Source: an uncultured Candidatus Saccharibacteria bacterium (GTDB lineage: Bacteria > Patescibacteriota > Minisyncoccia > UBA6257 > 1-14-0-10-44-23). From it: a stretch of 64,000 bases of DNA. Made by a program: the position numbers and the translations under genes. The notes beneath the pieces are model-generated. The model made no database searches. It saw only the letters and a program-made list of their open reading frames with translations, and was not told where the DNA came from. Shown piece after piece: positions 20,832 to 44,447 of this stretch. Numbering within the stretch: the stretch's first letter is position 1; each line of letters opens with the position of its first letter. The stretch spans positions 32,134-96,133 of the forward strand of contig CAZXKC010000005.1 in the NCBI GenBank assembly GCA_964641225.1. The letters run 5' to 3'.

Positions 20832-22925
<2,094 letters not shown>

Positions 22926-23027: not shown

Positions 23028-23384
23028 ATGTCCAAGTTTGTCACGCAGTCGGATCAGGAGGTCACGGTTACGGCACGGGTCGGCGAAACGGCGACTCTGC
23101 ATCTGAAGGGCGCCAGAATGACGGCCGCAATCTTGATGATGGCCTCGAACTTTCTTCGAGCCGGGTGCCCCGTGCAGTTGATCGGTCACGGATTTTGGGC
23201 TCCGAACGAAGATCGCGGAGACGAGCGTAGGGGTATTGAGGAGCAGTTCGGCGCGCTGGCTTGCGGCACCGAGGAGTTCTCGGTCACCGCGCGCGGACCT
23301 CAGGCAGGCACCAAGGGGCACCATTACGGCAGCTTCGTCGTGACGCGTCGTGGTGGTAGTTCCCACGAGCGGGAGATGGATTAA
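23028..23384 (+). CDS. High-GC (~64%) small hypothetical protein (118 aa) with strong SD; foreign cassette
   Basis: AAGGAGG lies 6 nt upstream of the ATG. GC is far above the neighbouring genes. A possible TTGACT -35 is at 22961. A terminator follows directly. Confidence 0.5.
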   Translation: MSKFVTQSDQEVTVTARVGETATLHLKGARMTAAILMMASNFLRAGCPVQLIGHGFWAPNEDRGDERRGIEEQFGALACGTEEFSVTARGPQAGTKGHHYGSFVVTRRGGSSHEREMD

Positions 23385-23390
23385 GTACGA

Positions 23391-23434
23391 CCGCGCCTTT
23401 CGGAGTCATTCCGAAGGGCGCGGCTTCTTTTTTT
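23391..23434 (+). terminator. Intrinsic terminator CCGCGCCTTTCGGA-gtcat-TCCGAAGGGCGCGG + CTTCTTTTTTT
   Basis: 13/14-bp stem followed by a T-run immediately after the 23384 stop. Confidence 0.7.
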
Positions 23435-24302
23435 ATACAAGGGAGAAGTACCACCGCGCGAGCACTTCACCATAAAATACGGCTACAAAAAATCCAATTA
23501 CAAGAAATGGACCAAAAGGTACGGCGGCTTTCATAGTGGCGCGCCGACGAGCGATCAAGAGCAGTCCTACCACTGAACCAATTACGAAGGCGGCTGCAAA
23601 GGCAATAATTGAGTCTGGCCAACCAAGAATAAGTGCCAGCGGAATAGCAAGCTTTACATCTCCCATCCCCATCCCCCGTTCTTTTGTTAAGAAGACTATG
23701 CCGCCAAAAATAAGTAGTGCGACTCCTGCTGCAATCAGTGCGCTTATCATTGGAGAATCGGGCGCGCCAAGTGTTGCACCGTAACTACCAAGAAAGCTTT
23801 GATATGGTATAAGTCCAAGAGATTTGATGGTGATCAGAACGATGCCGATTAGGCCGAGTAATATATTAGATTGATCGGGAATCAGTTGAAGTCGTAGATC
23901 GATCGCTGACAGTGTGATGCAGGTGTAGGTAGCTACGAGCCAGAGGCCGATGGTGAGATAAATCCAGATGAGTGAGTGGTCCTGTGACAGTAGCGAAATT
24001 CCTGCCAGATGACGAAATAAAAAGAATGGGAGTATCGCAGTCAGGAGGCCTGTAATTAATTCAATGAGCGGATACTGCCAACGAAGTGGTTTTTTGCAGC
24101 CGCGACAGGCACCGCACTGAATCACAAAGCTAATAATGGGAATTAACTCATACCAGTGCAGCACTTTTTTGCAGTGCATGCAGTGCGATCGCCCTTGTAC
24201 GCGTTTCGTGAAAAAAATAGACTGACCATCTTCGTATCGAAGCGACAGGACATTGATAAAGCTGCCGATTGCAACACCGAAGATAAAAAGAATAGCCCAC
24301 AT
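23433..24302 (-). CDS. pilD: Prepilin peptidase (type IV leader peptidase/N-methyltransferase, A24 family)
   Basis: N-terminal CxxC...CxxC zinc motif (CMHCKK...CGACRGC) and the multi-TM A24 peptidase core with conserved Asp residues. Confidence 0.85.
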   Translation of the reverse strand: MWAILFIFGVAIGSFINVLSLRYEDGQSIFFTKRVQGRSHCMHCKKVLHWYELIPIISFVIQCGACRGCKKPLRWQYPLIELITGLLTAILPFFLFRHLAGISLLSQDHSLIWIYLTIGLWLVATYTCITLSAIDLRLQLIPDQSNILLGLIGIVLITIKSLGLIPYQSFLGSYGATLGAPDSPMISALIAAGVALLIFGGIVFLTKERGMGMGDVKLAIPLALILGWPDSIIAFAAAFVIGSVVGLLLIARRRATMKAAVPFGPFLVIGFFVAVFYGEVLARWYFSLV

Positions 24303-27365: not shown

Positions 27366-30020
27366 CTAGGCCGCCTCTTTTCTAAAGATCAATTTTGTCA
27401 GCTCTACGAGACAGATACTAACTAGGCCAAAGCCTACTACGCCTGCAAGCCAGATTGGCGGAAGGCTGACTGTATTAAAGTATTTTTGAAGGAATGGGAG
27501 GTATACGCCGGCAAGCGTAAGAGTAAAGCCGAATGCAACACTTATCGTTAAGTATAGATTAGAGAATGGGTTGTAGGTAAAAATACTCGCCTTTAGATTT
27601 CTAATTGATCCAAGTACAAAGAGCGTGCAGGTGCCAAGACATGCGTAGATAAAGGTGCTTGTCAGCAGCGGATCAAATCCCATTTTTAGTAATCCGTAGT
27701 AGATACAGAAAAGCAGGAAACTGTTGAGTACTCCGTTGATGCCAATAAGGTACCGCATCTCATTAGTAAACACTCCACGGGCGGATCGGTGATTTTTTCC
27801 ATCAATATTTTTTTCAAATGCCAGCGTAATGCCTGGACCGCTTTCCGTGAGGAAATTAATCCAAAGAATTTGTAGTGCATTGATTGGATTGGCGACACCC
27901 ATCAGGAGCGATCCGCCAATCAGAACGATTTCGTCTAAGATTGTTGATGTAAGATAGACAATTGCTTTTCGCAAATTACTCAAGATGCGCCTACCCTCGG
28001 TTACAGCGGCGACAATTGTTTCGAAGTTATCATCCAAAAGAACTAAATCAGCAACATCTTGGCTGACGTCAGTGCCGCTGCCCATTGCTACGCCAATATT
28101 TGCCTCGCGCAGCGCCGGTGCATCATTGATGCCGTCTCCGGTCATGGCTACGATCTCTCCTTGTTTTTGAAGGAGTTTGACGATGCGTAATTTTGCAGCC
28201 GGACTTACGCGCGCAACGATGCGTAATGTCTTCATCCGTTCAGTAAGGTCTTCGTCGCTGAGTGAATCAAATTCTGATCCGCGCATGCATTCGTTCGGGT
28301 TGGTAAGTATTCCGAGTTCTCGGGCTATAGCTGAAGCGGTTTCCTCGTGATCGCCGGTAACAATTATGACGCGGATGCCCAGTTTTTGAACTTCAGTAAT
28401 CGCCTTTGCGGCTCCGGGCCGCAACGGGTCTTTAAATGAAAGCATTCCCAAAAAACGCAGGCCGGCTAAATGGTCATTGTTTTTAAAATGGAATGAGTCC
28501 GGGTTAGTTATTTCTTTAACTGCAACGCCAATAACGCGCTCACCGCGAGTCGCCATTTCAGAAAGTGCGCTGGTGATTTTTAAGCGTTCAATTTCGTTCA
28601 AGTCAGATAATGTCAGTAAAATATCCGGCGCACCCAAGACAGTTAATACATACGGTTCTTTTGCTTTAAAGCGTGCGTTATACCAATTCGACGGCATTTT
28701 ATATACACTTGCCGAAAATTTATTAAGAGAACTAAACGGAAGAAGATGCAGCGCCTCTTTGCCCGCTTTAACTGTCGGGAAGTGCACGCCCTTACTTGCG
28801 GCCGCCTTGACTAGGGCAACCTCAAGCGGTTTACCGACAAGTTTCCAATTTGAATGATCCTCGCTTGGATTTTCTATAAGTGCATCAACGTTGAGGAGCG
28901 CGGCATGCAGTAAAAATGCCTCCTGGCTAATCGATTCTTTAATAGCCGGCTCTGCTTCAAAAATAGTGATAGCGGCAAGACTCATTTTTGCTTGTGTGAG
29001 CGTGCCGGTTTTGTCGGTCAAAATTACCGAGGTGCTTCCTAGTGTCTCTGCTGCGGTTAAGCGACGGACAATCCCTTTTCGTTTAGAAAGTCGCTGAACG
29101 CCGATTGCCAGAATGACCGTCGTGATAATGGGCAGTCCTTCTGGTACGGCGGCAACTAAGATTGCTACCGCGATTAAAAATGAATCCAGAAGCGGCAGCC
29201 CTCGACTTGCGGCAATAAAGAATAATCCGCCGCTCATCAGTAAAATTCCCGCGCCTGCTTTAAGCGTAAACGTTCGTAATGCCTTCTGTAGAGGAGTTTG
29301 TTCTGTTGCGGCATTTGCCACGGCTTTGGCAATACTGCCGAATTCAGTCGTGTCATCAGTGAGTGTGACAACTGCGTTGCCGACCCCGTCAGTTACCATG
29401 GTTCCTGCAAATGCCATACAGCGCCTGTCGCCCAGCTCCGCATCTTCCGTGACCTGCTGACTATTTTTTTCAACAGGCATTGACTCTCCTGTTAATACTG
29501 CCTGGTCAATTCGCAGGTCATTTGAATGAATGATGCGGACATCCGCCGGAATGCGTTCCCCTTGCGATAATTTAATAATATCGCCCGGTACCAACTCTGT
29601 AGTGTCGATTTCGTGATCTGCTCCATCGCGTAATACACGGATACGACTAGTTATATACGAAGTTAAGTGTTCTAGAGCACGTTCTGCTTTATTTTCTTGA
29701 TAAAAACCTAATCCAGCATTAACAAAAGCAGCCAAAAGAATAAATAATGCATCGTTGTAGTCACCCAGCCCTATGGTAATCACTCCGGCTATAAGTAGGA
29801 CTACGATTAAAGGGCTGGTGAATTGTGATGCGAGAATAGAGATGCGCGTTCGCGGTTTTGATGCGATGAGCGTATTAGGGCCAAGTTGCTCCAGGCGCTT
29901 GCTGGCTTCAGCAGTAGAAAGACCGCGCTCTGTTGTTTTTAATTCGGCGAGTGTTTGCGCAATCGAAAAAGACCAGAATGGTTTTTTTGCATCTACCTTT
30001 GCTGCAGGAAGCGGCGACAT
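27366..30020 (-). CDS. P-type cation-transporting ATPase (Ca2+/Mg2+ type, P2/P3)
   Basis: DKTGTLT phosphorylation site, TGES actuator motif, GDGINDAPAL hinge, about 10 TM segments; 884 aa. Confidence 0.9.
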   Translation of the reverse strand: MSPLPAAKVDAKKPFWSFSIAQTLAELKTTERGLSTAEASKRLEQLGPNTLIASKPRTRISILASQFTSPLIVVLLIAGVITIGLGDYNDALFILLAAFVNAGLGFYQENKAERALEHLTSYITSRIRVLRDGADHEIDTTELVPGDIIKLSQGERIPADVRIIHSNDLRIDQAVLTGESMPVEKNSQQVTEDAELGDRRCMAFAGTMVTDGVGNAVVTLTDDTTEFGSIAKAVANAATEQTPLQKALRTFTLKAGAGILLMSGGLFFIAASRGLPLLDSFLIAVAILVAAVPEGLPIITTVILAIGVQRLSKRKGIVRRLTAAETLGSTSVILTDKTGTLTQAKMSLAAITIFEAEPAIKESISQEAFLLHAALLNVDALIENPSEDHSNWKLVGKPLEVALVKAAASKGVHFPTVKAGKEALHLLPFSSLNKFSASVYKMPSNWYNARFKAKEPYVLTVLGAPDILLTLSDLNEIERLKITSALSEMATRGERVIGVAVKEITNPDSFHFKNNDHLAGLRFLGMLSFKDPLRPGAAKAITEVQKLGIRVIIVTGDHEETASAIARELGILTNPNECMRGSEFDSLSDEDLTERMKTLRIVARVSPAAKLRIVKLLQKQGEIVAMTGDGINDAPALREANIGVAMGSGTDVSQDVADLVLLDDNFETIVAAVTEGRRILSNLRKAIVYLTSTILDEIVLIGGSLLMGVANPINALQILWINFLTESGPGITLAFEKNIDGKNHRSARGVFTNEMRYLIGINGVLNSFLLFCIYYGLLKMGFDPLLTSTFIYACLGTCTLFVLGSIRNLKASIFTYNPFSNLYLTISVAFGFTLTLAGVYLPFLQKYFNTVSLPPIWLAGVVGFGLVSICLVELTKLIFRKEAA

Positions 30021-30204
30021 ATGTGAGCTTACAGTCCGCGCTTCTTAAGCTCTTCGGCGACAATTTTCCGTACCATGTCCTCCATTGCTGATTGAGCGGC
30101 CTTTGCCTGTTCCATCATTTCTTTAATTTCAGCTGGTGACTTACCGGCCATCATCTGCTGTGCAGCTTTTACTTGATCAAAAAATCCCATATGTTTTTAT
30201 TACA

Positions 30205-30729
30205 TTAATTATTAGATGGAAACAGTGTCGGTGTTAGGTACTTTACCACAAGCTCATTAAATTTTTCAATTAACGTATCGGAAATTCGTAGTTCGTTCAT
30301 GCTTTGAAGTGGCGCGGTGATTATGTTACCTTGCTTTGAAATAAAGGGGGCGTGAGAAATTCGAAAATAGGGCTTTTCTGAACAATTTACGAAAACTATA
30401 AGTGTCTCCTGCCAGAGCTCGCCCAATTTGCGCAGTTTTTTAATATCATTTTCGTGACCGTCCGGGTGCCAGCGGAATTTTACGTCAATAAGGTAGGGTT
30501 TTCCTTTGCTGCCAACAACTAAAAAATCCGGAATTGCACGTAGCTTTATACCTATCTCTGGATGACGCTCCAGCATATCCTCAATGGCAAGCGTTTGAGG
30601 TAGGACGCTTTGGTGTCCAATTGGATAGACATCGTTGCCGGATTCCAGCAGTAGATCGGCAACAAGTGACTGGGCCATGCGAGCCTTGAGGTTAGTTTCG
30701 CGCCTATCTTGTTCTTTTGTGCGCTTCAT
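30205..30729 (-). CDS. PD-(D/E)xK nuclease-superfamily protein (restriction endonuclease-like fold), function unknown
   Basis: Motifs in order: AIEDM (E), IPDFLVV (PD), YLIDVKFR (D-x-K); 174 aa. Confidence 0.5.
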   Translation of the reverse strand: MKRTKEQDRRETNLKARMAQSLVADLLLESGNDVYPIGHQSVLPQTLAIEDMLERHPEIGIKLRAIPDFLVVGSKGKPYLIDVKFRWHPDGHENDIKKLRKLGELWQETLIVFVNCSEKPYFRISHAPFISKQGNIITAPLQSMNELRISDTLIEKFNELVVKYLTPTLFPSNN

Positions 30730-30762
30730 ATGGGCAGTTTAACATAAACGCAAAGGGGCCTG

Positions 30763-31278
30763 TTAGGGCCCCGCGTTGCTGTTTGGCGTCTCTACGCCGA
30801 AGATTCGATTCGATATGATGATCAGAAAACTGAGTACCAGTGAGAGTATGGGCGAGGCTACGAGCACCGGCCATGCAATCGCAATTGCTTGTTCTGCGCT
30901 GATCTTCGAAATCACCTCCAGGGAAATTATCAGTGGCACAAACTGAGTCATGACATAGCAGATGTAGTCTGCTGACAAAATCAAAACCATTTTCAGTCGT
31001 CCATCTCGCGTCCTGCAGAGTTGGGCGTATAGACAGAGCGTCTCCCGAATTCTTGACGACCCGTTCTTCTGAAGCTCTACGCCGAATAGCCGAGTGACTG
31101 GCTGACGAAACATGCGGTCATAGATGATGAGCAAGATCCATCCCAAGGCGAGCGAACACAGACTGGTTGCCAGTGCGGTATTGGCGATGATGCCACCGCG
31201 CCAGACATTCCAGACAATCCCTGCCAGTAGCGAAATGATGCAGACCAGCAAGGAGGACAGTATTTGTCTAGCAAGCAC
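30763..31278 (-). CDS. Hypothetical membrane protein (4-5 TM)
   Basis: 171-aa hydrophobic ORF. Confidence 0.45.
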   Translation of the reverse strand: MLARQILSSLLVCIISLLAGIVWNVWRGGIIANTALATSLCSLALGWILLIIYDRMFRQPVTRLFGVELQKNGSSRIRETLCLYAQLCRTRDGRLKMVLILSADYICYVMTQFVPLIISLEVISKISAEQAIAIAWPVLVASPILSLVLSFLIIISNRIFGVETPNSNAGP

Positions 31279-31449
31279 GTTCTACCCTGCTTTCTGTGTA
31301 GGGTCCTTAAAAAAACGAAAGGCACCACAAGGCGCCTAAATCAATACTAGCAAAAAAAGTTAACAAAATCAATTGGAGTTCAAAAATGAGTTAGGACCCT
31401 CTTACGCGGGGTCCCTTTACGGCTCCTTGTGGGAGCGGTGCTGCGACGA

Positions 31450-31791
31450 CTACTCGCTCGCCGGCGCCTCGAGAGGCGGTATCGGACCGTCGTAGTCGGT
31501 CACCGTGAACTCGACGTAGGCGCTGGTCTTCGGATCGCTCGTGACGCAGAGCATGTGCCCCTTCGTGGTGATGGTCAGCACGTAGTCGAATGATGTGCCG
31601 TTCCCCTGGGCCTTGACGGACTGGATCCGGGAAGTCCGACCCGGTCCGGTGTTGTCGGGAATGGATTCCACCGTCAATTCGGCATCTCCTCCAGCCAGGA
31701 GGATCTTGCCCTGCACACGGACCGCTCGCGTATTTGCCGCGAAGATCGGGTGCTTCTGGGCACCGGGAGGTATCAGGAAACAGTGCTGCAT
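31450..31791 (-). CDS. High-GC (~62%) small hypothetical protein (113 aa); foreign cassette
   Basis: ATG at 31789-31791 (MQHCFLIPPG...) is preceded by AAGGAG. The track's 31848 GTG start reads through the SD. A TTGCAA-17/18-TATAAT promoter lies at 31902-31931 (minus strand). A terminator hairpin GGGACCCCGCG...GGGTCC + T-run lies downstream (31385-31420). Confidence 0.5.
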   Translation of the reverse strand: MQHCFLIPPGAQKHPIFAANTRAVRVQGKILLAGGDAELTVESIPDNTGPGRTSRIQSVKAQGNGTSFDYVLTITTKGHMLCVTSDPKTSAYVEFTVTDYDGPIPPLEAPASE

Positions 31792-31972
31792 CGCACACAA
31801 CTCCTTCTGTTCCACGATTTCTAGCCTCCTAGAATATATGTGAAGCACGAATGTGCTTACTTTTTACATACACAAAATAAGCCAGATTTAAGTGGATACA
31901 TATTATAAACATATTTTAAAATTATTTGCAATAAATCGAGTTCTTAAGCTCCTGATACGAGAATTCTTTCTA

Positions 31973-32045
31973 GGTGGACCTGGGGAGAATCGGACTCCCC
32001 CCTCCTCCTTGCAAAGGAGGCGTTCTACCACTGAACTACAGGCCC
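31973..32045 (-). tRNA. tRNA-Cys (anticodon GCA)
   Basis: Reverse complement: GGGCCTG-TA-GTTC-AGTGGTA-GAAC-G-CCTCC-TTTGCAAG... with T-arm GGGAG-TCCGATT-CTCCC, acceptor CAGGTCC, discriminator A, CC. Confidence 0.85.
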
Positions 32046-32082
32046 GGGATAAAGAAAACAATAAACTAAAAACGATAAACAA

Positions 32083-32997
32083 TCAAGATTGAATTGTTTT
32101 AAAATATTCTAGGGTTGCTTCTAAGGTGCGGTCGGCTCCGAGACGAATACAGGTGTGTTTTTCGCATAACTTTTTAAGCGTTTCGTGATCATGGTCAAAT
32201 AAAAATTGCCAACGTGTCGGATCAACGAGTGTCAGTGCTGCAAATGGGCCGTATTCAGGAAGTTCATTTTTCAGATTATTTACTGCGCATAGCGCATGAT
32301 ATGCCTGCTCACGCGGTAATTCGTAGTGCGTGCATTTATCGCCGGAAGTTAATATAAAAAGGTTACCAATCGCCTGTGGTGTAAGAGTTGAACACTGCGC
32401 TTGCGGGAACGGGAATAACCGTTCTCCGTCAGTTAATACTATATCCCGCGAAAGAATTTCCGCACCCAATTCTTTCTGTAATGCGCGTATAAGCATATTT
32501 GTATCTTCTGTTGATATTCCGGCGACTACATGGGCCTGCGGGCCACCGAGTTTGAATGCAGTTGCCGATAGCGCCGTTACGTTCCAGCGGAGTGCTAACT
32601 GCATACAAATGAGATTTCGGATGAATGTATTTACTTTTTCAAATGCCGCTGTATTGTTCGGTCGGTGAAATAAACGGACAGTGCTACTAATGCCAATTTC
32701 GCAATACCAGGGAGCGCTAAGCGTAATTCGCGTTTCAAATTCTCCTTCTAAGATATAGACGGTGTTGTTTTGTCCGTCCCATCCAATTCCCCTTCCAAGA
32801 GTTTGCGGTGTATAGGCTTGATTTTTGTTTTTTGAAAATTGTTCTGAGGTTGTCACTGAAACAGTAATATCACTGGCCTCTGCGGTTAGCCTTTCGAAAC
32901 CAATAAAATAGTTTTGAGCTGCCTGCTGATACGCGGCATCGTGACTTGTAATAGATAGGCTAATTCCGTGAACTAAATATTTCTGTATTTTCGACAT
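32083..32997 (-). CDS. Hypothetical protein (304 aa)
   Basis: ORF only; no confident motif. Confidence 0.45.
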   Translation of the reverse strand: MSKIQKYLVHGISLSITSHDAAYQQAAQNYFIGFERLTAEASDITVSVTTSEQFSKNKNQAYTPQTLGRGIGWDGQNNTVYILEGEFETRITLSAPWYCEIGISSTVRLFHRPNNTAAFEKVNTFIRNLICMQLALRWNVTALSATAFKLGGPQAHVVAGISTEDTNMLIRALQKELGAEILSRDIVLTDGERLFPFPQAQCSTLTPQAIGNLFILTSGDKCTHYELPREQAYHALCAVNNLKNELPEYGPFAALTLVDPTRWQFLFDHDHETLKKLCEKHTCIRLGADRTLEATLEYFKTIQS

Positions 32998-33058: not shown

Positions 33059-34513
33059 ATGGCAAGCAAATTAAAATCGTTTTTCCTCGAAAATACCTCC
33101 TTACGTCAAACTGTATTTAAAAATACGTTTTGGCTTTCGGCAGCACAGGTCATCAGCCGTATCATTCGAGCGGCCATCATTATATATGCCGCCAGGCTGC
33201 TCGGGGCATCAGACTATGGTGTGTTCTCGTATGCTTTGAGTTTAGTTGGATTTTTCACCATCTTTGCCGACCTTGGCCTAACGTGGCTTCTTACGCGTGA
33301 AGCATCAAAGCCAGAACAATTGCCTACAAGCTATCTACTCGCAGCGCTCTTTCTTAAGTTACTACTTGTACTTATAAGTATGGCGCTGCTCGTTTTTGTT
33401 GCTCCGTTATTTATTACTATACCGGGTACCGCATTATTATTGCCGATCGCCGCGTTTGTAATGGCGTTTGATAGCTTAAGGATTTTTTTCTTTTCGCTTA
33501 CTCGTGCCCGACAGATAATGCAAACAGAAGCCTTTATTACCATACTCACCAATACTGCAATCGCTATTTTCGCTTTGATTGGTCTCGCAAGTGCTCCATC
33601 GAGTAAGGCTTTGATGTTTGCATATGCGCTCGGGACCGCAATTGGGTTTTTGATCGCTGCAATTTTTATCGGCAAAGAATTTATACGCGCACCCGGCGTT
33701 TCAAGGAGTTTATTTGTTACTTTACTGCGAAATGCATGGCCGTTCGCACTTATGGGTATTCTTGCCGGTGTAATGGTTAATATGGATACACTGATGCTCG
33801 GGTGGTTTATGGGCAGCCGTGAGGTGGGGCTTTATGGTGCAGCGCAACGACCCATTCTATTACTTTACGCAGTCCCAACTTTTTTCTCTACAAGCTTATT
33901 CCCTCTGTTTGCAAAGTATGCATACAACAATGCAGAGAAATTCAGGCGCATACTAGAAACAAGTTTAACCTTTTGTATTGCTGCTGTTTTACCGATCGTT
34001 GTTGGCGGAGTTATAGTTGCGCGCGAGCTAACTCTTCTGATCTATGGCCCTCAATTTTCTGAGGCGGCCGTTGCTTTTCGCATCCTACTTTTAACACTGC
34101 CAGCAATTTTTACTATTTTTATAGTTAGCGATGCGATTGTTTCCTATAACGGTCAGAAGAAATTTTTTATTTACAATTCACTGGGAGCCTTAAGCGACAT
34201 TATTCTTAACCTCATTCTTATTCCTAAGTTTGGCATCATGGGTGCTGCACTTTCTACGGTAGCTACTCAAATCATCACCGGGATTATTCTTTGGCGGCTA
34301 CTCAAGCGCCATATACCCTTCTCTGTGCTGCCGCGGCTGAATAAGATATTTGTAGCAACATTTATAATGGGAATTGCTGTATACGCACTATCGCTTACCG
34401 GCATTTCTGTTGTTTTTATAGTGATTGCAAGTTGCATTCTCTATGCAGGACTCCTATTTATCTTAAAAGAACCCCTTATAGGGGAGGTTAAGGCGGTGTT
34501 TAAGCGAGGTTAA
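33059..34513 (+). CDS. wzx: Oligosaccharide flippase (Wzx, MOP superfamily)
   Basis: 484 aa, about 12-14 TM helices, conserved polysaccharide-biosynthesis-protein N-terminal pattern (NTxWLxxAQVISRxxRAAIIIYAARLLG). Confidence 0.8.
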   Translation: MASKLKSFFLENTSLRQTVFKNTFWLSAAQVISRIIRAAIIIYAARLLGASDYGVFSYALSLVGFFTIFADLGLTWLLTREASKPEQLPTSYLLAALFLKLLLVLISMALLVFVAPLFITIPGTALLLPIAAFVMAFDSLRIFFFSLTRARQIMQTEAFITILTNTAIAIFALIGLASAPSSKALMFAYALGTAIGFLIAAIFIGKEFIRAPGVSRSLFVTLLRNAWPFALMGILAGVMVNMDTLMLGWFMGSREVGLYGAAQRPILLLYAVPTFFSTSLFPLFAKYAYNNAEKFRRILETSLTFCIAAVLPIVVGGVIVARELTLLIYGPQFSEAAVAFRILLLTLPAIFTIFIVSDAIVSYNGQKKFFIYNSLGALSDIILNLILIPKFGIMGAALSTVATQIITGIILWRLLKRHIPFSVLPRLNKIFVATFIMGIAVYALSLTGISVVFIVIASCILYAGLLFILKEPLIGEVKAVFKRG

Positions 34514-34517
34514 TGCC

Positions 34518-35615
34518 ATGAAGATTGTTTTTATTTTTAATTCTCTGACCGCTGAGTTTGGCGCCGATCTTTTAACCGCATTTCCAAAAACAGATGAGGT
34601 TATTTTTATTTCTCTACTTGAGAATGGGCCGTCAATAGCTACATTAACAGAACATAGGATTAAGGTTTTTAACCTTAACGGATTTCATGGGTATTCTAAA
34701 AGTTCTCGATTGCGTGGGTTGAGATTGCTATTGCGACTACCGAAACTTGTACGACAGGTACGGGATATTTTAAAAATAATTTCACCTGAAGTAGTGCATA
34801 CAAATTTTTGGCTTTCGGATATCGTAGGTATTCTTGCAGCACGTAATCTTGTTGTAAAAATTTTTTCTACTCAACATGATGAAGTGAGCGTGCCTCTTTT
34901 TATACGTGTTCTCAAAATGCGCCTGTTGCGTCGTGTAACCAAAGTTGTTGCAATTTCAAATTCCGTTGCTAACTTTACTCAACATTATTTTTCTGTTCCT
35001 GCATCTAAAGTTGTCGTCATTAAAAATGGAATAAAAATTGACTCATTTGCTTCTGCTATCCGCCCGGAAAATGAGTGGCAGCCGATCCTTGGAATCGTTG
35101 CTCGCCTCGAATTAATTAAAGGGCATGAATATTTATTTCGTGCGCTCGCCTTGCTTAAAAAGCAAGGTGTCGTTTTGCCACGCTTAGAAATTGTCGGTCA
35201 GGGTTCGCAAGGAAAATTTCTTAGAACTCTTGCAGTGGAGCTAGACATTATTTCTTCGATTGTTTTTTGCGGTTATAATGCGAATATTATCGCCGAATTA
35301 CGCAAGATAGATATCCTTATACAGCCTTCCGTATCTGAAGGTTTAGGTATTAGTATTATCGAAGGCCTTGCGAGTCAAAAGCTTATTATCGGTAGTGATG
35401 TAGGTGGCATTCCGGAACTCATTAAAAATCATCAAACGGGTTTGCTTATCGAGCCCGCAAACTTTGAGAGTTTAGCGAATGCCCTTGTATGGGCAATTAC
35501 TCATCGCGCCGATGCTTTGAAGCTGGCCTCTAACGGACACCGGTGGCTACTTGAGAATAAAAATATGTTTGATATCCATTCGACGGCTATGGCATACCGT
35601 AAACTTTATGAATAA
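34518..35615 (+). CDS. Glycosyltransferase family 4
   Basis: C-terminal GT4 nucleotide-sugar binding motif EGLGISIIEGLASQKLIIGSDVGGIPELI. Confidence 0.85.
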   Translation: MKIVFIFNSLTAEFGADLLTAFPKTDEVIFISLLENGPSIATLTEHRIKVFNLNGFHGYSKSSRLRGLRLLLRLPKLVRQVRDILKIISPEVVHTNFWLSDIVGILAARNLVVKIFSTQHDEVSVPLFIRVLKMRLLRRVTKVVAISNSVANFTQHYFSVPASKVVVIKNGIKIDSFASAIRPENEWQPILGIVARLELIKGHEYLFRALALLKKQGVVLPRLEIVGQGSQGKFLRTLAVELDIISSIVFCGYNANIIAELRKIDILIQPSVSEGLGISIIEGLASQKLIIGSDVGGIPELIKNHQTGLLIEPANFESLANALVWAITHRADALKLASNGHRWLLENKNMFDIHSTAMAYRKLYE

Positions 35616-36876
35616 AAAAGTACTTTTTGTTTCTTCATATGCGCCTCCTGCGATCGGAGGGCCTAATAATCTTTACTGTCTTTTGCGCGACACTACGCCA
35701 AATGAACTTGATTACACTATTCTGACAAGCTTCTACAACATCGACGCATTGTCTGCGAAAGTTGGCAACTGGTTGCCAGGAGATTATGCATTTTACGATA
35801 AGCCGTCTGCAACAAAACAGCAGGCGCAAAACCCTTTAGCTACAAAAGACGGACAGTTAGGACGTAGTGCTATTAGGAAACTAAAACACCTCATGAAGCG
35901 GACGGCATTTATTGCTACGCTTGCGGGCATTCCGGTCATTTTTTCGCAAATTCTGGCTATCTATCGTGCCGGTAAAAAAGTGTCCAATGCAAGAGGTAGC
36001 GAAATTATTATGGCATTTTCTGATTACGGACCGGCCGTCCTCGGTAGCTATTTCTTACATAAGAAAACCAAGATACCGCTTTATCTTTTTATGTTTGATA
36101 TCTATTACGGCAATCATTTTCCTTTTCCTGGCGGATTGCTTTCGCGTATTTTCGAACCCAAGCTTTTCCGGACAGCAGAAAAGATCGTGGTTACTAATGA
36201 GGGAACTAAAGAATTTTACGTAAAGAGATACGGCGCACAGATTGCTGATAAGATTTTTGTAATTCATAACGCGGCATTCGGCGGAGCATACCGAGAACTC
36301 CAAGCACCATACAATCCGAAGCCTCCTTATACTATTCTTTTTACGGGACGTATTGGTTGGCCTCAGATTGGCGCACTAAAAAATTTCGTTAAAGCAATTG
36401 AGCTAATGGATGACTCGAATATTAGACTTAAATTTTACTGTCCGAACCCGAAAGAATATGTGCAACGCATGGGTCTTGCAAGTCCGAAAATCGAGTGGTC
36501 AGTGGCCGCGCCGAAAGATATACCGGCGATCCAGAGTAAGGCAGATATCCTTTTCCTTCCTCTTTCTTGGGGTACCAAGGGCCAAATGATTATTGATACT
36601 GCTACTCCGGGGAAGTTGACTGACTATCTTGCTGCTGGTAGGCCGATTCTGATCCACGCTCCTGCGAGCTCCACGCTTGTTGCGTATGCTAAAAAACGGC
36701 AGTTTGCTCGCGTTGTTGACGATGAAAACATTGAGCACCTCCAAGTCGCCATCAGGGACATTTTAAGTGATGTCCCGCAGAGTCAAAAATTTATCAATAA
36801 TGCCCTAAAGACGTTCGATGAAAATCATGAAGCTGGTACTAATGCTCGGAAATTCCTTACGCTTTTTAAGCGTTAG
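35608..36876 (+). CDS. Glycosyltransferase-like protein (GT4/GT-B fold, divergent)
   Basis: Start taken at the ATG at 35608 (MNKKVLFVSSYAPP), overlapping the upstream stop (ATGAATAA). GT-B-like C-terminal domain. Confidence 0.55.
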   Translation: MNKKVLFVSSYAPPAIGGPNNLYCLLRDTTPNELDYTILTSFYNIDALSAKVGNWLPGDYAFYDKPSATKQQAQNPLATKDGQLGRSAIRKLKHLMKRTAFIATLAGIPVIFSQILAIYRAGKKVSNARGSEIIMAFSDYGPAVLGSYFLHKKTKIPLYLFMFDIYYGNHFPFPGGLLSRIFEPKLFRTAEKIVVTNEGTKEFYVKRYGAQIADKIFVIHNAAFGGAYRELQAPYNPKPPYTILFTGRIGWPQIGALKNFVKAIELMDDSNIRLKFYCPNPKEYVQRMGLASPKIEWSVAAPKDIPAIQSKADILFLPLSWGTKGQMIIDTATPGKLTDYLAAGRPILIHAPASSTLVAYAKKRQFARVVDDENIEHLQVAIRDILSDVPQSQKFINNALKTFDENHEAGTNARKFLTLFKR

Positions 36877-38107
36877 GCTGCGCTAAAGAATCAAGAATAC
36901 GTGCAAATTTTTTTCCGTATGTTTTAGCGCTGAATTGTTCTATTTCCCCCTGGTTTGGGGATACGTGCAAACCAGAGTCAACGTATTGTGCATAATACTG
37001 TTCAATTGCCTTTTTGATACCTGAAATATCGTCGGGAGAGACAACAATACCCGTGTTTGTTAAACGAATTGCATCGGCGGAGGCTCCCTTAGCAGGAGTA
37101 ATACCCAGAATCGGTTTTTTTGTTAGAAAATATTCTACAAGTTTGCCAGGAAGAAAAATACTTTCTTCTTTCTCCGGCGCGTCAATAAGCAATAAAATGT
37201 CTGCGGTGAAAATTTCTCGCAGCGCCTCTTGTCGAGGTAAGCCATCAATTAACGTAATACTAGATTCTAATCGATATGTAGAAATCAATTCTTTGAATTT
37301 TCCGATTGGACCAACGAATCTTACCGCGACTTTTGTCTCAAGATCTTTTCTTTCATCAAGAAGTAAGCGTAGGGCCTTCAAAAATGGCTCAGGAGAACGT
37401 AGTCCATACAAGCTTCCCGTATAGGTTATAGTCATCTTGTTCTTATTCTCAGCGTTTCGCAGAGGAGCGCTTTCTCTTTGCAGTTGAGCAAATTCTTCCG
37501 GATCATATGAGTTCGGCATAGTAACGAACTTATTCTGAAAGTTATACTTTTTCATGGCCAGTGATTTTGTCTGGTCGGTGGTGAGGATAATTTTATCTGC
37601 CTTTTCTAGTATCTTTTGCTCGACGCGCTCATTTATTTTTTTAATAAATGGATTTTTGAATGTGATATATGGATTCTGTGTCCACAGATCCCCGAATAAC
37701 AACACGGAAGGTAATTGCGCGTATTTATTAATACGCAGTAGTGCGAGATGTGAGCTTATAGGATTCGAGCGTGATACAATTACATCAAATTTTTCATATT
37801 TCAAGGCTTTTCTTGCGGCCCGAGACGCAAAAGTCACCCAGCCTATCTCTGGGTCTGGTATTAATTTGAGACGACTTAAGCCTCGAAATAAAAGATTAGT
37901 AATAGTCCGGGTTCTATGTACTTGAGTGTTTTTTGGAATTCGTTCGGAGGTCTCCGTATCACTATTAAATCCGCGAATTTTTTCCGCGCAAATCACAGTC
38001 ACCTCCCAGCCAAAATCTGACAAATATTTAACTGAATTCAGCGCCATTGTACTTTCAATTGACCGGATGGGCGGAAAAAAGTAAGAAATAAAGAGCAGTT
38101 TCTTCAT
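36866..38107 (-). CDS. Glycosyltransferase family 4 (WbuB-like)
   Basis: N-terminal LLFISYFFPP and GT-B architecture; 413 aa. Confidence 0.75.
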   Translation of the reverse strand: MKKLLFISYFFPPIRSIESTMALNSVKYLSDFGWEVTVICAEKIRGFNSDTETSERIPKNTQVHRTRTITNLLFRGLSRLKLIPDPEIGWVTFASRAARKALKYEKFDVIVSRSNPISSHLALLRINKYAQLPSVLLFGDLWTQNPYITFKNPFIKKINERVEQKILEKADKIILTTDQTKSLAMKKYNFQNKFVTMPNSYDPEEFAQLQRESAPLRNAENKNKMTITYTGSLYGLRSPEPFLKALRLLLDERKDLETKVAVRFVGPIGKFKELISTYRLESSITLIDGLPRQEALREIFTADILLLIDAPEKEESIFLPGKLVEYFLTKKPILGITPAKGASADAIRLTNTGIVVSPDDISGIKKAIEQYYAQYVDSGLHVSPNQGEIEQFSAKTYGKKFARILDSLAQPNA

Positions 38108-38115
38108 GATGGTAT

Positions 38116-39189
38116 CTACAGCTCTTTTGTGAGAATATCGATGATGCGTGCAGCGGTCTTCCCGTCTCCAAAAGGATTATGCCAGTTTTTCTTTATTTGA
38201 AGCATTTTCTTCGTAGAACTTACAATTTTTTTGGCAGTTGCGCCGGCTAATATATTTGAGCCTACTGCTAATGTTTCGGGGCGCTCTGTATTATCACGCA
38301 ACGTAACGCAGGGCACGCGCAAGATGCATGCTTCTTCTTGTATTCCGCCGGAATCCGTAAGAACTAATTCGGCGTGAGATTCAAGCCAAAGAAACTCAAG
38401 ATAACCAACCGGGTCAATAAATTCTACGCCCTTGGGCAAGGGCAAAGAAAATGTTCGTATTCTATCTTTAGTCCGAGGGTGCAACGGGCAAAGTATCCTC
38501 ATATTGTATTCTTTACTAACTGCTTCTAACCCCGCAAGAATGCCGCTGAGCCGTTTTTTATTATCAACATTTTCGGCTCTATGAAATGTTGCTAAAAAAT
38601 AAGTTTTTTTAAAAGTTCCTTTGTGTTTTGAAAGTGGTAGATTTTGGTGCACCGCATCTACAATCGTGTTACCGACAACAAATATTGAATCGAGCGGCAT
38701 CCCCTCCTTTTTTAAGATATTTTTTGCTCCTTGTGTTGGCGTAAATAGAAAATCAGAGCAGTGGTCTGTCAAGATTCTATTTCTTTCTTCGGGCATTTCA
38801 TTAAAATAAGACCGTAGTCCTGCCTCTACGTGTCCTATTTTAATATTCAGTCGCGATGCCGCTAGAGCGCCCGCTAGCACAGTATTAGTATCGCCTTCAA
38901 CCAACACCACGGTCGGTTTTTCTTTTTTTAAAATTTTCTCGAGACCAATAAGCATTGCGGCGCTTCCCTCTGCTGGAGTTCCTCCATTCGCATGGAGATT
39001 ATATTTGGGACGCGGCAGCTTGAGTTCAGAAAAGAAAATTTTATCCAAATTTGCTGAATAATGCTGATTTGTATGAACAATAAAAAAACGTAATTGTCTT
39101 CGCTGGCATTCTCTGATGACCGGCGACATTTTAATAATTTCCGGTCTCGTTCCGACGACGATGCAAATTTTTATGTTAGCGTGCTTCAT
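38116..39189 (-). CDS. wecB: UDP-N-acetylglucosamine 2-epimerase (non-hydrolysing)
   Basis: IVVGTRPEIIKMSPV, VLVEGDTNTVLAGALAA, DSGGIQEEA; 357 aa. Confidence 0.85.
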   Translation of the reverse strand: MKHANIKICIVVGTRPEIIKMSPVIRECQRRQLRFFIVHTNQHYSANLDKIFFSELKLPRPKYNLHANGGTPAEGSAAMLIGLEKILKKEKPTVVLVEGDTNTVLAGALAASRLNIKIGHVEAGLRSYFNEMPEERNRILTDHCSDFLFTPTQGAKNILKKEGMPLDSIFVVGNTIVDAVHQNLPLSKHKGTFKKTYFLATFHRAENVDNKKRLSGILAGLEAVSKEYNMRILCPLHPRTKDRIRTFSLPLPKGVEFIDPVGYLEFLWLESHAELVLTDSGGIQEEACILRVPCVTLRDNTERPETLAVGSNILAGATAKKIVSSTKKMLQIKKNWHNPFGDGKTAARIIDILTKEL

Positions 39190-39197
39190 ACGAAAGG

Positions 39198-40370
39198 TTA
39201 CCCACGAAAGAATAGGTCTTTTTTGCTTTTATTGCCAATATCCTCTTGTATGAGTAGATCAATAAAGAACTTTGCCGCCCAATTAGGGTAAGAGAAAGGA
39301 AGATACGATCCCCAGATAGGAAAACTACCGGCGATTGCTCCTCGGATATTCTCGCTCTTAGCGCTACTGTTTTGATGATTTTTTAAGAAATCAACAACGC
39401 TCTTACTGTTGCGGTTATAGTTTCCTTCTGGATATAGCTGGCTAAGTTCGCGCCACACAAGCGCTGTTTGCGCCAGGCCCGTAAGACACATGGATGTTCC
39501 TGCTGCTGCCCAATCAGCGGCATAGACATCAAAAAGCATTTTTTTATCATGCAGCTCTGATAATTTATCAGCGGTTTTTTTCGCCGCTAATATATATTTT
39601 TCTTCTTTAAAGATGCGCCCACCCTCCAGTAAACCTTGGACTGTATATGCTATGGTGTGTAGGCCTGATTTTTTATCAGCAAAAAATCCACTATTCTCAA
39701 ACCAGCCGTTTTCTTTCTGTTGTCCTAACACCCATTCTAAATTTTTAACAGCGTAATTTTTGTATGTTATATCGCTAGTCAGCAAATATGTTTCTGCTAA
39801 TGCCCATGCGACTCGCGAATAATATGTGTGCGGAAGATTGCCAAATGCATGAATAATCCAAGAACCATCGGATTCTTGAATTGAGCATAACCAATCACTT
39901 GCTTTTTTGAGAGCTCGGAGATATTCCGCTTGTTCAGTAAATTTATATAGGCCTATAAGCCCGAATATAATCTGCCCAGTATCGAAAACATACGGCGTTT
40001 TTGTTTTAAGACCCGGGAAAGAACCATCGGTTGCCTGCAAAGCTAAAAGCCACTGCCCAGATTTTGTGCAGGCTTCGATAATTTCATCCTTTCGATATTC
40101 AGTGTATCGCGAGACATTAAGCAGCGTCGAGATAAGATAGCCGGTTGTTTCGGGGTACGGGGCATCCCAACCTCTTTTTAATGAATACGAAGCAGAAAAA
40201 CCCTTTTTACCCGTAGCCGCAAACGATCTCAAGAGCCAATCAATACTTGCGCTTAATATCTGTTCACCATTTTGAGTAGCTGCTTTATTTTTATTGCCTA
40301 ACACCCACAGCCATTCATAGATGCTCTGAGGGGTAAACATGTGTCGCAGTAAAGATAATCCACGTTCCAT
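39198..40370 (-). CDS. Alpha/alpha-toroid repeat protein with QW-like motifs (squalene cyclase/prenyltransferase-like fold), function unknown
   Basis: Repeated Q-x2-D/N-G-S-W/F motifs (QATDGSFP, QESDGSWI, QKENGWFE); 390 aa. Confidence 0.45.
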   Translation of the reverse strand: MERGLSLLRHMFTPQSIYEWLWVLGNKNKAATQNGEQILSASIDWLLRSFAATGKKGFSASYSLKRGWDAPYPETTGYLISTLLNVSRYTEYRKDEIIEACTKSGQWLLALQATDGSFPGLKTKTPYVFDTGQIIFGLIGLYKFTEQAEYLRALKKASDWLCSIQESDGSWIIHAFGNLPHTYYSRVAWALAETYLLTSDITYKNYAVKNLEWVLGQQKENGWFENSGFFADKKSGLHTIAYTVQGLLEGGRIFKEEKYILAAKKTADKLSELHDKKMLFDVYAADWAAAGTSMCLTGLAQTALVWRELSQLYPEGNYNRNSKSVVDFLKNHQNSSAKSENIRGAIAGSFPIWGSYLPFSYPNWAAKFFIDLLIQEDIGNKSKKDLFFRG

Positions 40371-40371
40371 A

Positions 40372-41115
40372 TCATTTAGTAGCAGACCAAACCACGTAAA
40401 AATCTAAAAATGGAAATACCGTATGCAGCACCAAAGAAACAAAGCTGTGTAAGCCGAGTAAGAATTTTTTAAGAAAAGAACGTTTTTTGATATCTGGTTG
40501 AAAACGCAAAAAAGTGATTTTGGAAGTTGAAAAGTGCCTTTTTAAAGCTGCATTTAACTGCCACGGGATAAAATATTTTTCTTTGAAGGGAAAATCTCTT
40601 GGATACATCCATCTATTTGTTAGCTCATTAAATTTTTTCCACAGATACGTGGGAATAAAATACACGTGATGCAATGAAAGGATATTTTTATCTATTAACA
40701 CGAAAGTTCCTCGTTTTTTTAAGACTCTAGCCATTTCCCTTAGAGCTGATTCTGCGTCGGGAATATGCTCCAGCACTTCAATGCAAAGTACATAATCGAA
40801 GTAATCATCGGTAAATGGTAAAGAGGCTGCATCCGCTTGTATAAACTGGATGTCTTTATTAATCACTTTAGCTTCGCGTACCAATTCACTGGCTGGCTCA
40901 ACTCCGACGACTTCAAATCCCTTATCTTCTAATTTACGCGTAAATGATCCTCTTCCGCATCCTACATCTAATATTTTTTTGTTTTTATTAGGTTCTCCAA
41001 GAAATTCTAAAACTTTTTTTAATTCAAAATTAGAATCATCTATGGATGAGGTTACGGCCCGAAGACCCTCGGGCGCATTAAATCGTTCAATTATTTTATT
41101 TTTTAACTCCTCCAT
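40372..41115 (-). CDS. Class I SAM-dependent methyltransferase
   Basis: Motif I ILDVGCGRGSF, followed by motif II/III spacing. Confidence 0.8.
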   Translation of the reverse strand: MEELKNKIIERFNAPEGLRAVTSSIDDSNFELKKVLEFLGEPNKNKKILDVGCGRGSFTRKLEDKGFEVVGVEPASELVREAKVINKDIQFIQADAASLPFTDDYFDYVLCIEVLEHIPDAESALREMARVLKKRGTFVLIDKNILSLHHVYFIPTYLWKKFNELTNRWMYPRDFPFKEKYFIPWQLNAALKRHFSTSKITFLRFQPDIKKRSFLKKFLLGLHSFVSLVLHTVFPFLDFYVVWSATK

Positions 41116-41121
41116 ACCAGA

Positions 41122-41892
41122 CTATGGTATTTGCAAAAACTGATTTACCCGATCTTTAGGATTAAAAAAGTTAGGATCTAAACTGTTCATATCAGTCCAC
41201 TTCCAATTTTTTTTCGGCACGCGCCAGTCCTCACCAAATAGTGCCACAAGATATTCTTCTGCCGGCGTAGGAACGGGAAACTGCATTCCATAAAACGTTA
41301 ATGGCGTAAGATGTTCTACTAGCCGTTTTGGGATCATCAGCGCGTATTCAGCCTGCCCAAGGCCATAGCAAATTCCGAAAAACATCCGCCGAAGGGTTGG
41401 CATCATAAATCGTGGAATGCTGTGATATAGGGCTTTTTCGAAAGGATGGATGCCGTGGTGATAACTGCCATACAGCATTCTGTCGGCAATGCGATAAAAA
41501 TGCTTTGCCATGAATTCAAGTTTTGGTTTACTTCGTAGACAAAAAGGTGACCAGATTTTATCGCCCGCTGTACGGTAAAACATTATAGAAACAGCTAAAT
41601 TCTCTTTTTCCATCCCGAGATATGCCGCGAAGTCGGTCACATCGATTCTCCACCCTTCTTGCGCAAGCTCACGAAGTACCCTGAAGACTTTTGGGGCCTC
41701 TTCTAGCGTAGTTGAAAAATCAACGTCGTTATCCCACGCTATAACTTTACCTTCACGCACAGCCCCCAGAAGTGTGCCGGTCTCTAGCCAATAACGGACG
41801 CCGTGTCTCTCTAGCGCCTCCTTTACCATTTTCATATATGGGACCCAGCTTTCATCGCCGGCCCCCTTCCCGATGATATTGTTTTGACTCAT
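41122..41892 (-). CDS. licD: LicD-family (fukutin-like) phosphotransferase
   Basis: YWLETGTLLGAVREGKVIAWDNDVDF matches the LicD nucleotidyltransferase-fold signature (LxxGTLLGAVR...D.D.D). Confidence 0.8.
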   Translation of the reverse strand: MSQNNIIGKGAGDESWVPYMKMVKEALERHGVRYWLETGTLLGAVREGKVIAWDNDVDFSTTLEEAPKVFRVLRELAQEGWRIDVTDFAAYLGMEKENLAVSIMFYRTAGDKIWSPFCLRSKPKLEFMAKHFYRIADRMLYGSYHHGIHPFEKALYHSIPRFMMPTLRRMFFGICYGLGQAEYALMIPKRLVEHLTPLTFYGMQFPVPTPAEEYLVALFGEDWRVPKKNWKWTDMNSLDPNFFNPKDRVNQFLQIP

Positions 41893-41900
41893 GAATCTGT

Positions 41901-42551: not shown

Positions 42552-43000
42552 ATATGTTCGATTATTTTACTGGTTGATGTGACATCGTGATAATCCAAAA
42601 CTTTTGCTATTCCTCCCCAGGCCTTAACAACTTCTGCCCCTGGTGGATTCTTTCCTTTTTCCCAGCCTGCGCCCGGTCCCTTAACTAGTTTATGCGGTTT
42701 TATTTTTAATAAATTTTTGTTCGGCTGAAATTCGTCTTGAAATATTACTTCATCAACAAATCCAATATTGCCAACGACAGCGGCCCTATGGGCCTGAGGG
42801 ATAATAGGCTTGCGCTTAAATTTTGTCGCAACTTCATCTGTATAAATGCCAACAATCAACTTATCACCGAGTTTCTTTGCCTCCTTTAAAAGTTGCAAGT
42901 GGCCAACGTGAAATAAGTCAAATACTCCATACGTGTAGACAACCACTGGCCCTATTTTTTTAGCTTTCTTAACGGCCGAAATGCGCTTGGTTTTTTTCAT
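42530..43000 (-). CDS. Cytidylyltransferase, TagD/glycerol-3-phosphate cytidylyltransferase-like (HxGH nucleotidyltransferase)
   Basis: TYGVFDLFHVGHLQLL is the HIGH motif of class I-like nucleotidyltransferases; 156 aa. Confidence 0.8.
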   Translation of the reverse strand: MKKTKRISAVKKAKKIGPVVVYTYGVFDLFHVGHLQLLKEAKKLGDKLIVGIYTDEVATKFKRKPIIPQAHRAAVVGNIGFVDEVIFQDEFQPNKNLLKIKPHKLVKGPGAGWEKGKNPPGAEVVKAWGGIAKVLDYHDVTSTSKIIEHIWKLQQQ

Positions 43001-43074
43001 AAAGTAAGAGAAAACCTGAATCCAGGTAAGGTCTTTACTATAACTAAAAAAATACTCAAATGCAAATCAGAAAA

Positions 43075-44368: not shown

Positions 44369-44447
44369 ACTATCCTCTACGGAAGCTGCGATACTGATCG
44401 CATGCATGACCCGTGGAAAGAGAAAATAGGTAGCAGGAGGGTGCGGA

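Follow-up and report, generated by a model that had tools for sequence, protein, structure and literature searches.

Genes at the tRNA-Ala locus

We analysed a 64,000-nt stretch of DNA from an uncultured Candidatus Saccharibacteria bacterium (contig CAZXKC010000005.1; hereafter the window, with a mean GC content of 45.3%) and focus here on a locus at which a tRNA gene is followed, on the minus strand, by genes for a high-GC 113-aa protein, a 171-aa membrane protein and a 174-aa predicted nuclease. An earlier note on this DNA had placed the locus beside tRNA-Cys and had read all three genes as a possible foreign islet lacking an integrase. The tRNA gene (31973–32045, minus strand) is identified by ARAGORN as tRNA-Ala(tgc) and matches the Rfam tRNA model with 66.8 bits. 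Its 7-nt anticodon loop, UUUGCAA, places UGC rather than GCA at positions 34–36, and its acceptor stem (GGGCCUG/CAGGUCC) carries the G3:U70 alanine identity pair; the gene is thus tRNA-Ala(UGC), and the assignment to tRNA-Cys does not hold. In the T-loop, this tRNA-Ala has C55, compared with U55 in two relatives, L002 and L004. The C55 variant is present in three independent assemblies, namely the window and the Logan assemblies L001 and L005. To our knowledge, U55 (pseudouridine-55) is almost universal in tRNAs.

On the 3′ side of the tRNA gene, the segment 31391–31800 has a GC content of 62%, as against the window mean, and is among a few discrete high-GC patches. Within it, a 113-codon open reading frame (ORF; 31450–31791, minus strand) has GC fractions of 0.59, 0.48 and 0.79 at the first, second and third codon positions, respectively, and its third-position value (GC3) lies 5.9 s.d. 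above that of the 51 other ORFs of the window (mean 0.426 ± 0.061). Periodicity of GC over codon positions is strong solely in this frame. The overlapping 135-aa ORF, in a different frame, is rich in arginine, as an off-frame translation would be, and we therefore take the 113-aa frame to be the coding one. The encoded protein is acidic (isoelectric point 5.9); a hydropathy scan gives no transmembrane segment, and its N terminus, judged by eye, has no hydrophobic stretch.

The 113-aa gene has its own expression signals. The best promoter match within 30000–32200 is a sigma-70-like TTGCAA-18-TATAAT (31931–31926 and 31907–31902, minus strand), which agrees with the consensus at 10 of 12 positions and sits in AT-rich DNA of about 36% GC. 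Matches of this quality occur at chance level across the window (17, versus 18.2 in shuffled sequences), so that the promoter is made credible by its placement, its strand and the Shine–Dalgarno (SD) sequences that follow, not by its score. A small hairpin in the 5′ untranslated region (5′ UTR) also lies upstream of the ORF. Two SD sequences on the minus strand, each with its own start codon at 9-nt spacing, precede the gene: AGGAGG (31830–31825) with GTG at 31815, giving 121 aa, and AAGGAG (31806–31801) with ATG at 31791, giving 113 aa. Gene callers on Logan contigs chose GTG starts, yielding 121- and 132-aa versions of the protein. Just past the stop codon, a GC-rich hairpin (31394–31416, minus strand; −13.5 kcal/mol; 9-nt loop; no adjoining U-run) closes the high-GC segment, and the only canonical intrinsic terminator lies 113 nt beyond the stop (31337–31320, minus strand); it reads AGGCGCC-TTGT-GGTGCCT, with TTCGTTTTTT behind it. 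The high-GC 113-aa ORF, the promoter (with an 18-nt spacer, on the correct strand and at the correct position) and the two tandem SDs described in the earlier note are all borne out; its terminator exists as the canonical one at 31337–31320, whereas the hairpin directly after the stop, without a U-run, is not canonical.

Long chance ORFs are common in GC-rich DNA, as is to be considered here with a 135-aa ORF overlapping in another frame, and the segment 31391–31800 could in principle be non-coding, representing either an RNA with structure or an ORF that arose by chance. The window has at least one further GC-rich patch that resembles an RNA, and there are no homologues on which selection could be tested. 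We regard this explanation as extremely improbable, given that the periodicity favours the 113-aa frame, that the two SDs are well spaced, that the alternative frame is the arginine-rich one and that AlphaFold2 (AF2) returns a coherent seven-strand model from the single sequence. The segment has no Rfam match.

The next gene on the minus strand (30763–31278) encodes a 171-aa multi-pass membrane protein with about four hydrophobic segments, in agreement with what had been claimed for it. Its composition is also elevated (GC 0.51; GC3 0.62, 3.1 s.d. above the ORFs of the window), and a terminator scan places its intrinsic terminator at 30772–30755 (minus strand), at the distal edge of the interval discussed below. 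The two genes thus form two self-contained transcription units, one consisting of promoter, SD, 113–121-aa ORF and hairpin and terminator, and the other of the 171-aa gene with its own terminator.

Relatives and fold of the 113-aa and 171-aa proteins

Neither protein has a recognizable relative in the collections searched. A word-indexed search of 5.8 billion proteins returned only self-matches for the 113-aa protein and nothing but itself for the 171-aa protein. An exhaustive phmmer search with the 113-aa protein against 1.84 billion cluster representatives found no real homologue; two matches (P0029 and P0030) were rejected as repeat proteins whose scores sum many identical short repeats. 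The 113-aa protein also had no match in Pfam, NCBIfam, PADLOC, PHROGs or PDB sequences, no relative in plasmids or phages by six-frame tblastn and none in scans of viral and metagenome contigs. PADLOC assigned no family to the 113/121-aa, 171-aa or 174-aa proteins.

The AF2 single-sequence model of the 113-aa protein contains seven β-strands, with a predicted local distance difference test score (pLDDT) of 65, a low-confidence value. Searched against PDB and BFVD, this model gave generic jelly-roll and β-sandwich matches alone, from which no function can be derived. The protein may tentatively be pictured, from this model, as a small soluble β-sandwich. With similarly low confidence, we suggest that it acts as a cytoplasmic accessory protein in conflict or host interaction rather than in housekeeping, on the grounds of its location in a hot spot and the defence-type cargo found at the same place in one relative, and of nothing else.

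A conserved flank that begins with a predicted Hjc-like nuclease

The 174-aa gene (30205–30729, minus strand) contrasts in each of these respects with the insert. Its composition is native (GC3 z score of −0.1), and its product has 26 homologues besides itself, in metagenome-assembled genomes labelled Saccharibacteria, Parcubacteria, Sungbacteria, Liptonbacteria and Wolfebacteria, a distribution that assigns the window to a Patescibacteria genome, most likely one of Saccharibacteria. An AlphaFold model based on the 27-sequence alignment (pLDDT 87; predicted template modelling score (pTM) 0.84) has the α-β-β-β-α-β core of the PD-(D/E)xK fold. In this alignment, E29 is kept in at least 90% of the 27 sequences, position 68 (in IPDF) is D or E in all 27, position 82 has one or the other of these residues in 25, and 26 share K84 (motif hh[DE]VKFRW); in the model, these four residues fall at the sites expected structurally of a PD-(D/E)xK enzyme. 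The protein is thereby confidently modelled as having an Hjc-like PD-(D/E)xK fold and is a predicted nuclease, as the earlier note had proposed. By sequence, it has no significant match to a Pfam or NCBIfam family (sub-threshold Pfam matches to TnsA-like_N and DUF790 have E values of about 0.2), does not belong to Hjc (PF01870) by sequence profile and finds nothing relevant in a PDB profile search. Compared with the archaeal Holliday-junction resolvase Hjc, it is longer (174 versus about 120 aa) and has extra N- and C-terminal helices; it is, moreover, bacterial, occurs in lineages of the candidate phyla radiation (CPR) and lacks a significant Pfam Hjc match. A family with this modelled fold, conserved across CPR lineages, may plausibly supply reduced genomes such as these with a junction-resolving enzyme.

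The genes beyond the nuclease are conserved too. A 53-aa gene (30029–30190, minus strand), 75–89% identical in close Saccharibacteria relatives, follows the nuclease gene in these relatives, on the opposite strand in one of them (L022). We compared five relatives at 64–86% protein identity (L002, L004, L021, L022 and L023). The order nuclease, 53-aa ORF, P-type ATPase, ComF-like, PilM, PilB, PilD and LigA is kept in L002, L004, L021 and L023, and L022 keeps the order from nuclease to LigA but without the P-type ATPase. In the distant CPR lineages, solely the nuclease gene is held in common, not its neighbours. From its native composition, its presence as a family in several lineages and this conserved gene order, we conclude that the nuclease gene is the edge of the variable region and not part of its cargo.

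The variable interval between tRNA-Ala and the nuclease gene

The variable part of the locus is confined to 30730–31972 (1.24 kb), between tRNA-Ala and the nuclease gene, and its content differs in every genome examined. In the window, it holds the 113-aa high-GC gene and then the 171-aa membrane-protein gene. In L002, whose nuclease is 86% identical, the same interval holds genes for a DUF5343 protein and a protein with a DpnII/MboI-like restriction-endonuclease (REase) domain, together with 74-aa and 161-aa ORFs. In L004, it holds seven genes, two of them of about 60–62% GC, and in L021 it holds a 159-aa membrane protein and then DUF2061. In L023, a contig without tRNA-Ala, a 174-aa membrane protein followed by DUF2061 lies between the upstream gene and the nuclease. 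The tRNA gene is a conserved anchor at one side of the interval. In L002, L004 and L021, too, the upstream border is tRNA-Ala(UGC), with different cargo each time.

L004, L021 and L023 encode small membrane proteins that are mutually homologous, with the L002 161-aa protein a marginal member (E = 0.07). A leader hairpin is conserved before the membrane-protein gene in L004, L021 and L023 and is partial and diverged in L002. Where conserved, the leader consists of a promoter-like CTGGATTT..TAAT, then the hairpin CAGCCCGAGAGGGGCTG and then a T-run, at coordinates estimated from alignment A5 (L021, about 5090–5130; L023, about 6210–6250; L004, about 7130–7170); the element could serve in attenuation or regulation. 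Neither this protein family nor its leader hairpin was found in the window by BLASTP, profile comparison or alignment. The 171-aa protein might have been an orthologue that has diverged from this family, but this was rejected after both BLASTP and hhalign proved negative, and the AT-rich promoter region of the 113-aa gene could not be taken as ancestral intergenic DNA, as it does not align with the leaders of the relatives.

The cargo of L002 (5534–6780) is of a recognizable kind. Its DUF5343 protein matches the PADLOC candidate PDC-M34A (E = 9 × 10−31), and its DpnII/MboI-like protein matches the Argonaute-associated Aga_Helical-REase models (E = 2 × 10−21); judging by these profile matches, the two are probably a defence pair.

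Because both genes of the interval are orphans and the counterparts in relatives are dissimilar to them, we conclude that two genes without known relatives have taken over the whole of 30730–31972 in this strain. The outcome that the earlier note had named as refuting its islet, synteny across related genomes together with a resolvase-like nuclease, is seen in half: the nuclease turned out to be both syntenic and resolvase-like, whereas the 113-aa and 171-aa genes are syntenic in no relative.

These comparisons also bear on whether the two genes might instead be native and vertically inherited, evolving fast, with a high GC content that reflects selection on messenger RNA structure or amino-acid content. 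Their promoter, SDs and terminators look native, the 113-aa transcript folds somewhat better than shuffled sequences (z = −3.5) and a small membrane protein is encoded at the same position in relatives. The GC excess of the 113-aa gene, however, falls mostly on the third codon position (0.79, versus 0.48 at position 2), there is no resemblance to the positional counterparts even when profiles are compared with sequences, the conserved leader of these counterparts is absent and other unrelated high-GC units in the window point to repeated acquisition. We therefore hold native, vertical descent to be highly unlikely.

Search for signs of site-specific integration

tRNA genes are common integration sites, and the earlier note had suggested looking near the nuclease gene for a direct repeat of the 3′ end of this tRNA. 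No such attachment-site (att)-like repeat was found: the 22-mer at the tRNA 3′ end occurs only once in the window, with up to three mismatches allowed, the best partial matches in 29500–31960 remain below shuffle maxima in an ungapped scan and a repeat finder gave no direct repeat flanking the insert. No recombinase domain was detected in the ORFs of 30029–32997 or 34518–44292, nor in the flippase ORF at 33059–34513, which was covered by the NCBIfam scan only, and no integrase, transposase or other mobile-element gene was found within about 12 kb. The statement that no integrase is present is thus upheld in the ORFs scanned on both sides. One side of the locus is a surface-glycan gene cluster, and the other, towards 20–30 kb, contains the ATPase, ComF, type IV pilus (T4P) and LigA genes, assigned by synteny. 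The sole hint of site-specific integration is the difference between C55 and U55 in the T-loop, which is the type of sublocation at which tRNA-targeting integrases cross over.

These results weigh on the original proposal of a decayed or non-canonical mobile islet, or a small nuclease-based module, comprising all three genes and inserted site-specifically at the tRNA. Consistent with it, the insert abuts the tRNA 3′ end, the T-loop differs from that of relatives at C55 and the model supports the nuclease fold. The nuclease gene, however, has a native composition and keeps its place next to downstream core genes in five relatives, the family is spread over several CPR lineages, and neither an att repeat nor an integrase nor a PADLOC match for any of the three proteins was found; we consider such an islet very unlikely. 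What stands of the tRNA-linked foreign islet is that it is foreign, strain-specific and integrase-free and adjoins the tRNA 3′ end; it has two genes rather than three. Atypical composition and patchy presence are true of the 113-aa and 171-aa genes but not of the nuclease gene (GC3 z score of −0.1, 26 homologues and synteny in five relatives), whose membership in the islet does not survive.

Junctions in independent assemblies and possible cassette exchange

The junctions of the high-GC segment are found at 100% identity in L001 and L005, Logan assemblies of two other runs, and, being reproduced independently, are not an assembly artefact. One of these assemblies, L001 (SRR14271335; 1114 bp), matches the L002 glycosyltransferase flank at 100% identity over 457 nt and continues into the tRNA; the remainder has the C55, promoter, ORF and hairpin of the window at 100% identity and stops at 31390, the end of the high-GC segment.

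This contig raises the possibility that a 583-bp unit (31390 to about 31995), made up of the 3′ part of tRNA-Ala, the promoter, the ORF and the hairpin, is a mobile cassette that was recently exchanged between two Saccharibacteria species that occur together, with homology anchored in the tRNA gene. In its favour, L001 joins an L002-type flank to a window-type tRNA 3′ part and cassette, both at 100% identity, although the two backgrounds are merely about 66–72% identical in common genes, and its end at 31390 coincides with the end of the high-GC segment. The first 54 nt of the tRNA, however, are identical in both species, which exceeds the k-mer length of the Logan assembly, which we take to be 31, and L001 may be a chimeric path in a sample that contains both species. 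L003 and L005, furthermore, both begin at tRNA position 23, as a branch of the assembly graph at the C55/U55 single-nucleotide polymorphism would produce, and L001 is short (1114 bp), which fits patchy coverage. We find recent exchange of such a cassette conceivable, if on balance unlikely.

A probable hot spot of turnover without mobile elements

The composition of the insert is foreign, relatives lack it and the genes on either side are conserved; neither an integrase nor an att repeat was found with it. Taken together, we think it probable that 30730–31972 is an insert of two horizontally acquired genes, specific to this strain, in a turnover hot spot that is free of mobile elements and bounded by tRNA-Ala(UGC) and the nuclease gene. 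Cargo would arrive at this hot spot and be exchanged without a dedicated recombinase. A likely route would be natural transformation, followed by homologous recombination at the tRNA gene on one side and at the block of nuclease and T4P genes on the other, and the high-GC coding DNA would originally have come from a high-GC donor, for which a high-GC host or a phage of that host is plausible. Hot spots without mobile elements are known to have an excess of recombination at their flanking core genes, to diversify thereby and to be commoner in transformable bacteria (PMC5635113). Saccharibacteria live on high-GC Actinobacteria as epibionts, and their natural competence was demonstrated recently (PMC10187176 and PMC10633639); competence-related T4P and ComF-like genes adjoin the locus in the same window.

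Four points weigh against this interpretation. No donor was found: had the gene come from a high-GC lineage that is already sequenced, homologues would be expected, and the searches gave none. Recombination at the flanks is a process that we infer here. The comparison covers a handful of relatives, the nearest of which differs by about 30% in DNA sequence. Finally, the join between an AT-rich promoter and 5′ UTR and a GC-rich ORF is not explained by a simple transfer of a single fragment.

Among systems already described, the locus most resembles the mobile-element-free hot spots of a 2017 study (PMC5635113): conserved genes enclose a short stretch whose cargo turns over rapidly among relatives and which has no integrase or other mobility gene, a tRNA is at its border, the cargo of one relative is of defence type and the group is naturally competent. 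It differs in that flank recombination is here something we infer, in that the cargo consists of orphan single genes with their own near-consensus promoter and terminator and in that the host clade is a CPR epibiont for which very few comparable genomes exist. The locus belongs to a known kind, the mobile-element-free hot spot, here with cargo that lacks known relatives. With tRNA-targeting islands and the tycheposons of Prochlorococcus (Hackl et al., bioRxiv 10.1101/2020.12.28.424599), it shares small cargo directly 3′ of a tRNA in a streamlined genome, and one tRNA that borders variable DNA in several relatives. Unlike in those systems, no integrase or transposase, repeated tRNA 3′ segment or element ends are present here, and the other high-GC units of the window are not next to tRNAs. 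A further likeness is to phage morons, reportedly described by Hendrix and colleagues in about 2000. A moron is an autonomous unit of promoter, ORF and terminator with a composition unlike that of its neighbours. The 113-aa unit has, in the same way, a sigma-70-type promoter, one ORF, a hairpin and terminator and a sharp compositional jump, and it lies between syntenic genes; unlike morons, it has no prophage context, no PHROGs match and no viral structural match, and its neighbours are cellular genes.

Taken alone, the locus is an ordinary strain-specific islet, and the idea of a nuclease island fails. It also documents a concrete integrase-free hot spot, from tRNA-Ala to the Hjc-like gene, in Saccharibacteria, whose routes of gene gain are poorly known. 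Because other unrelated high-GC units occur in the window, the acquisition appears to be a repeated one: the 113-aa unit is one of several inserted mini-genes, each self-contained and foreign in composition. Should these units stem from the high-GC hosts of the epibionts, they would constitute a direct record of gene flow from host to parasite and a source of candidate host-interaction factors. A bolder version, which we regard as speculative and rather doubtful, is that the genome repeatedly captures short high-GC coding pieces, possibly from its actinobacterial host or the phages of that host, and sets each one between genes, with no integrase, as an independent mini-gene with a strong promoter, and that the tRNA-Ala unit has just moved between two co-occurring epibiont species by transformation through homology in the tRNA gene, as contig L001 would suggest. 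If true, CPR bacteria would have an economy of moron-like cassettes that needs no recombinase.

Other high-GC units in the window

The window contains at least five self-contained high-GC units, including that of the 113-aa gene. The others with ORFs are a 118-aa ORF (23028–23384, plus strand; GC3 z score of +4.7), an 83-aa ORF (5858–6109, plus strand; +4.9), a 229-aa DUF218 protein (44448–45137; GC3 of 0.87, z score of +7.2) and a HIT-like ORF (about 45310–45681; +6.2). Each unit lies between genes and is preceded by a promoter-like match, a weak one in two cases, and followed by a hairpin or terminator; the ORFs also have an SD. Promoter matches at 11 or more of 12 positions number 6 in the window, compared with 1.47 ± 1.13 in shuffled sequences, and none of 100 shuffles reaches 6; 3 of these 6 lie directly upstream of high-GC units, so that three of the at least five unrelated units bear some of the strongest consensus promoters of the window. 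The idea that the high-GC patches form a family of repeated elements was rejected, as they share no DNA or protein similarity with one another or with the high-GC ORFs of relatives. Relatives, too, hold accessory genes that are GC3 outliers. Two further contigs, L019 and L020, independently confirm junctions of high-GC units, with L019 covering the 118-aa unit.

The 118-aa unit lies between LigA (20832–22925) and PilD (23433–24302), on the strand opposite to these neighbours, and has an AAGGAGG SD and a terminator with a 15-bp stem. The same gap between PilD and LigA is 39 nt in L002 and holds an unrelated 265-aa gene of 65% GC in L004; it is a second hot spot.

In the region 44340–45724, the DUF218 gene stands behind a perfect promoter (TTGACA-17-TATAAT, 12 of 12), and the adjoining HIT-like ORF stands behind one that matches at 11 of 12 positions. 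When the DUF218 gene was used to seek the donor lineage, scans of plasmids and JGI metagenomes gave no close relatives. No stop interrupts the HIT-like frame from 45271 on, but its first ATG, GTG or TTG codon is the GTG at 45442; the ORF may be truncated, frameshifted or read from a non-canonical start (ATC at 45310, 8 nt past an AAGGGAG SD).

Two GC-rich units of the window are less clearly coding. The unit at 5825–6165 (plus strand) lies between a tRNA-Met at 5610–5683 (minus strand) and another at 6226–6295 (plus strand). Its 83-aa ORF has a near-consensus SD, GGAAGGAGGTGATC, and is rich in glycine, proline and arginine; with a second-position GC fraction of 0.67, its coding status is doubtful. 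A terminator with a 12-bp stem follows at 6131–6157, the fold z score is −3.6 and the unit has no Pfam, PHROGs or Rfam match. The unit at 3515–3975 (minus strand; 61% GC), downstream of an ORF that reads by eye as pheS, is about 430 nt long and has no codon periodicity. Its promoter (4010–3983) matches at 11 of 12 positions, and a terminal hairpin at 3521–3560 is followed by a U-rich tail. It folds with a z score of −7.55 on the minus strand, versus −3.66 on the plus strand, and has no Rfam match even at E ≤ 10, making it a candidate for a novel structured RNA.

Elsewhere in the window, an AdoCbl-II (cobalamin) riboswitch (13257–13330, plus strand; 56 bits) lies upstream of a 755-aa ORF (13451–15718).

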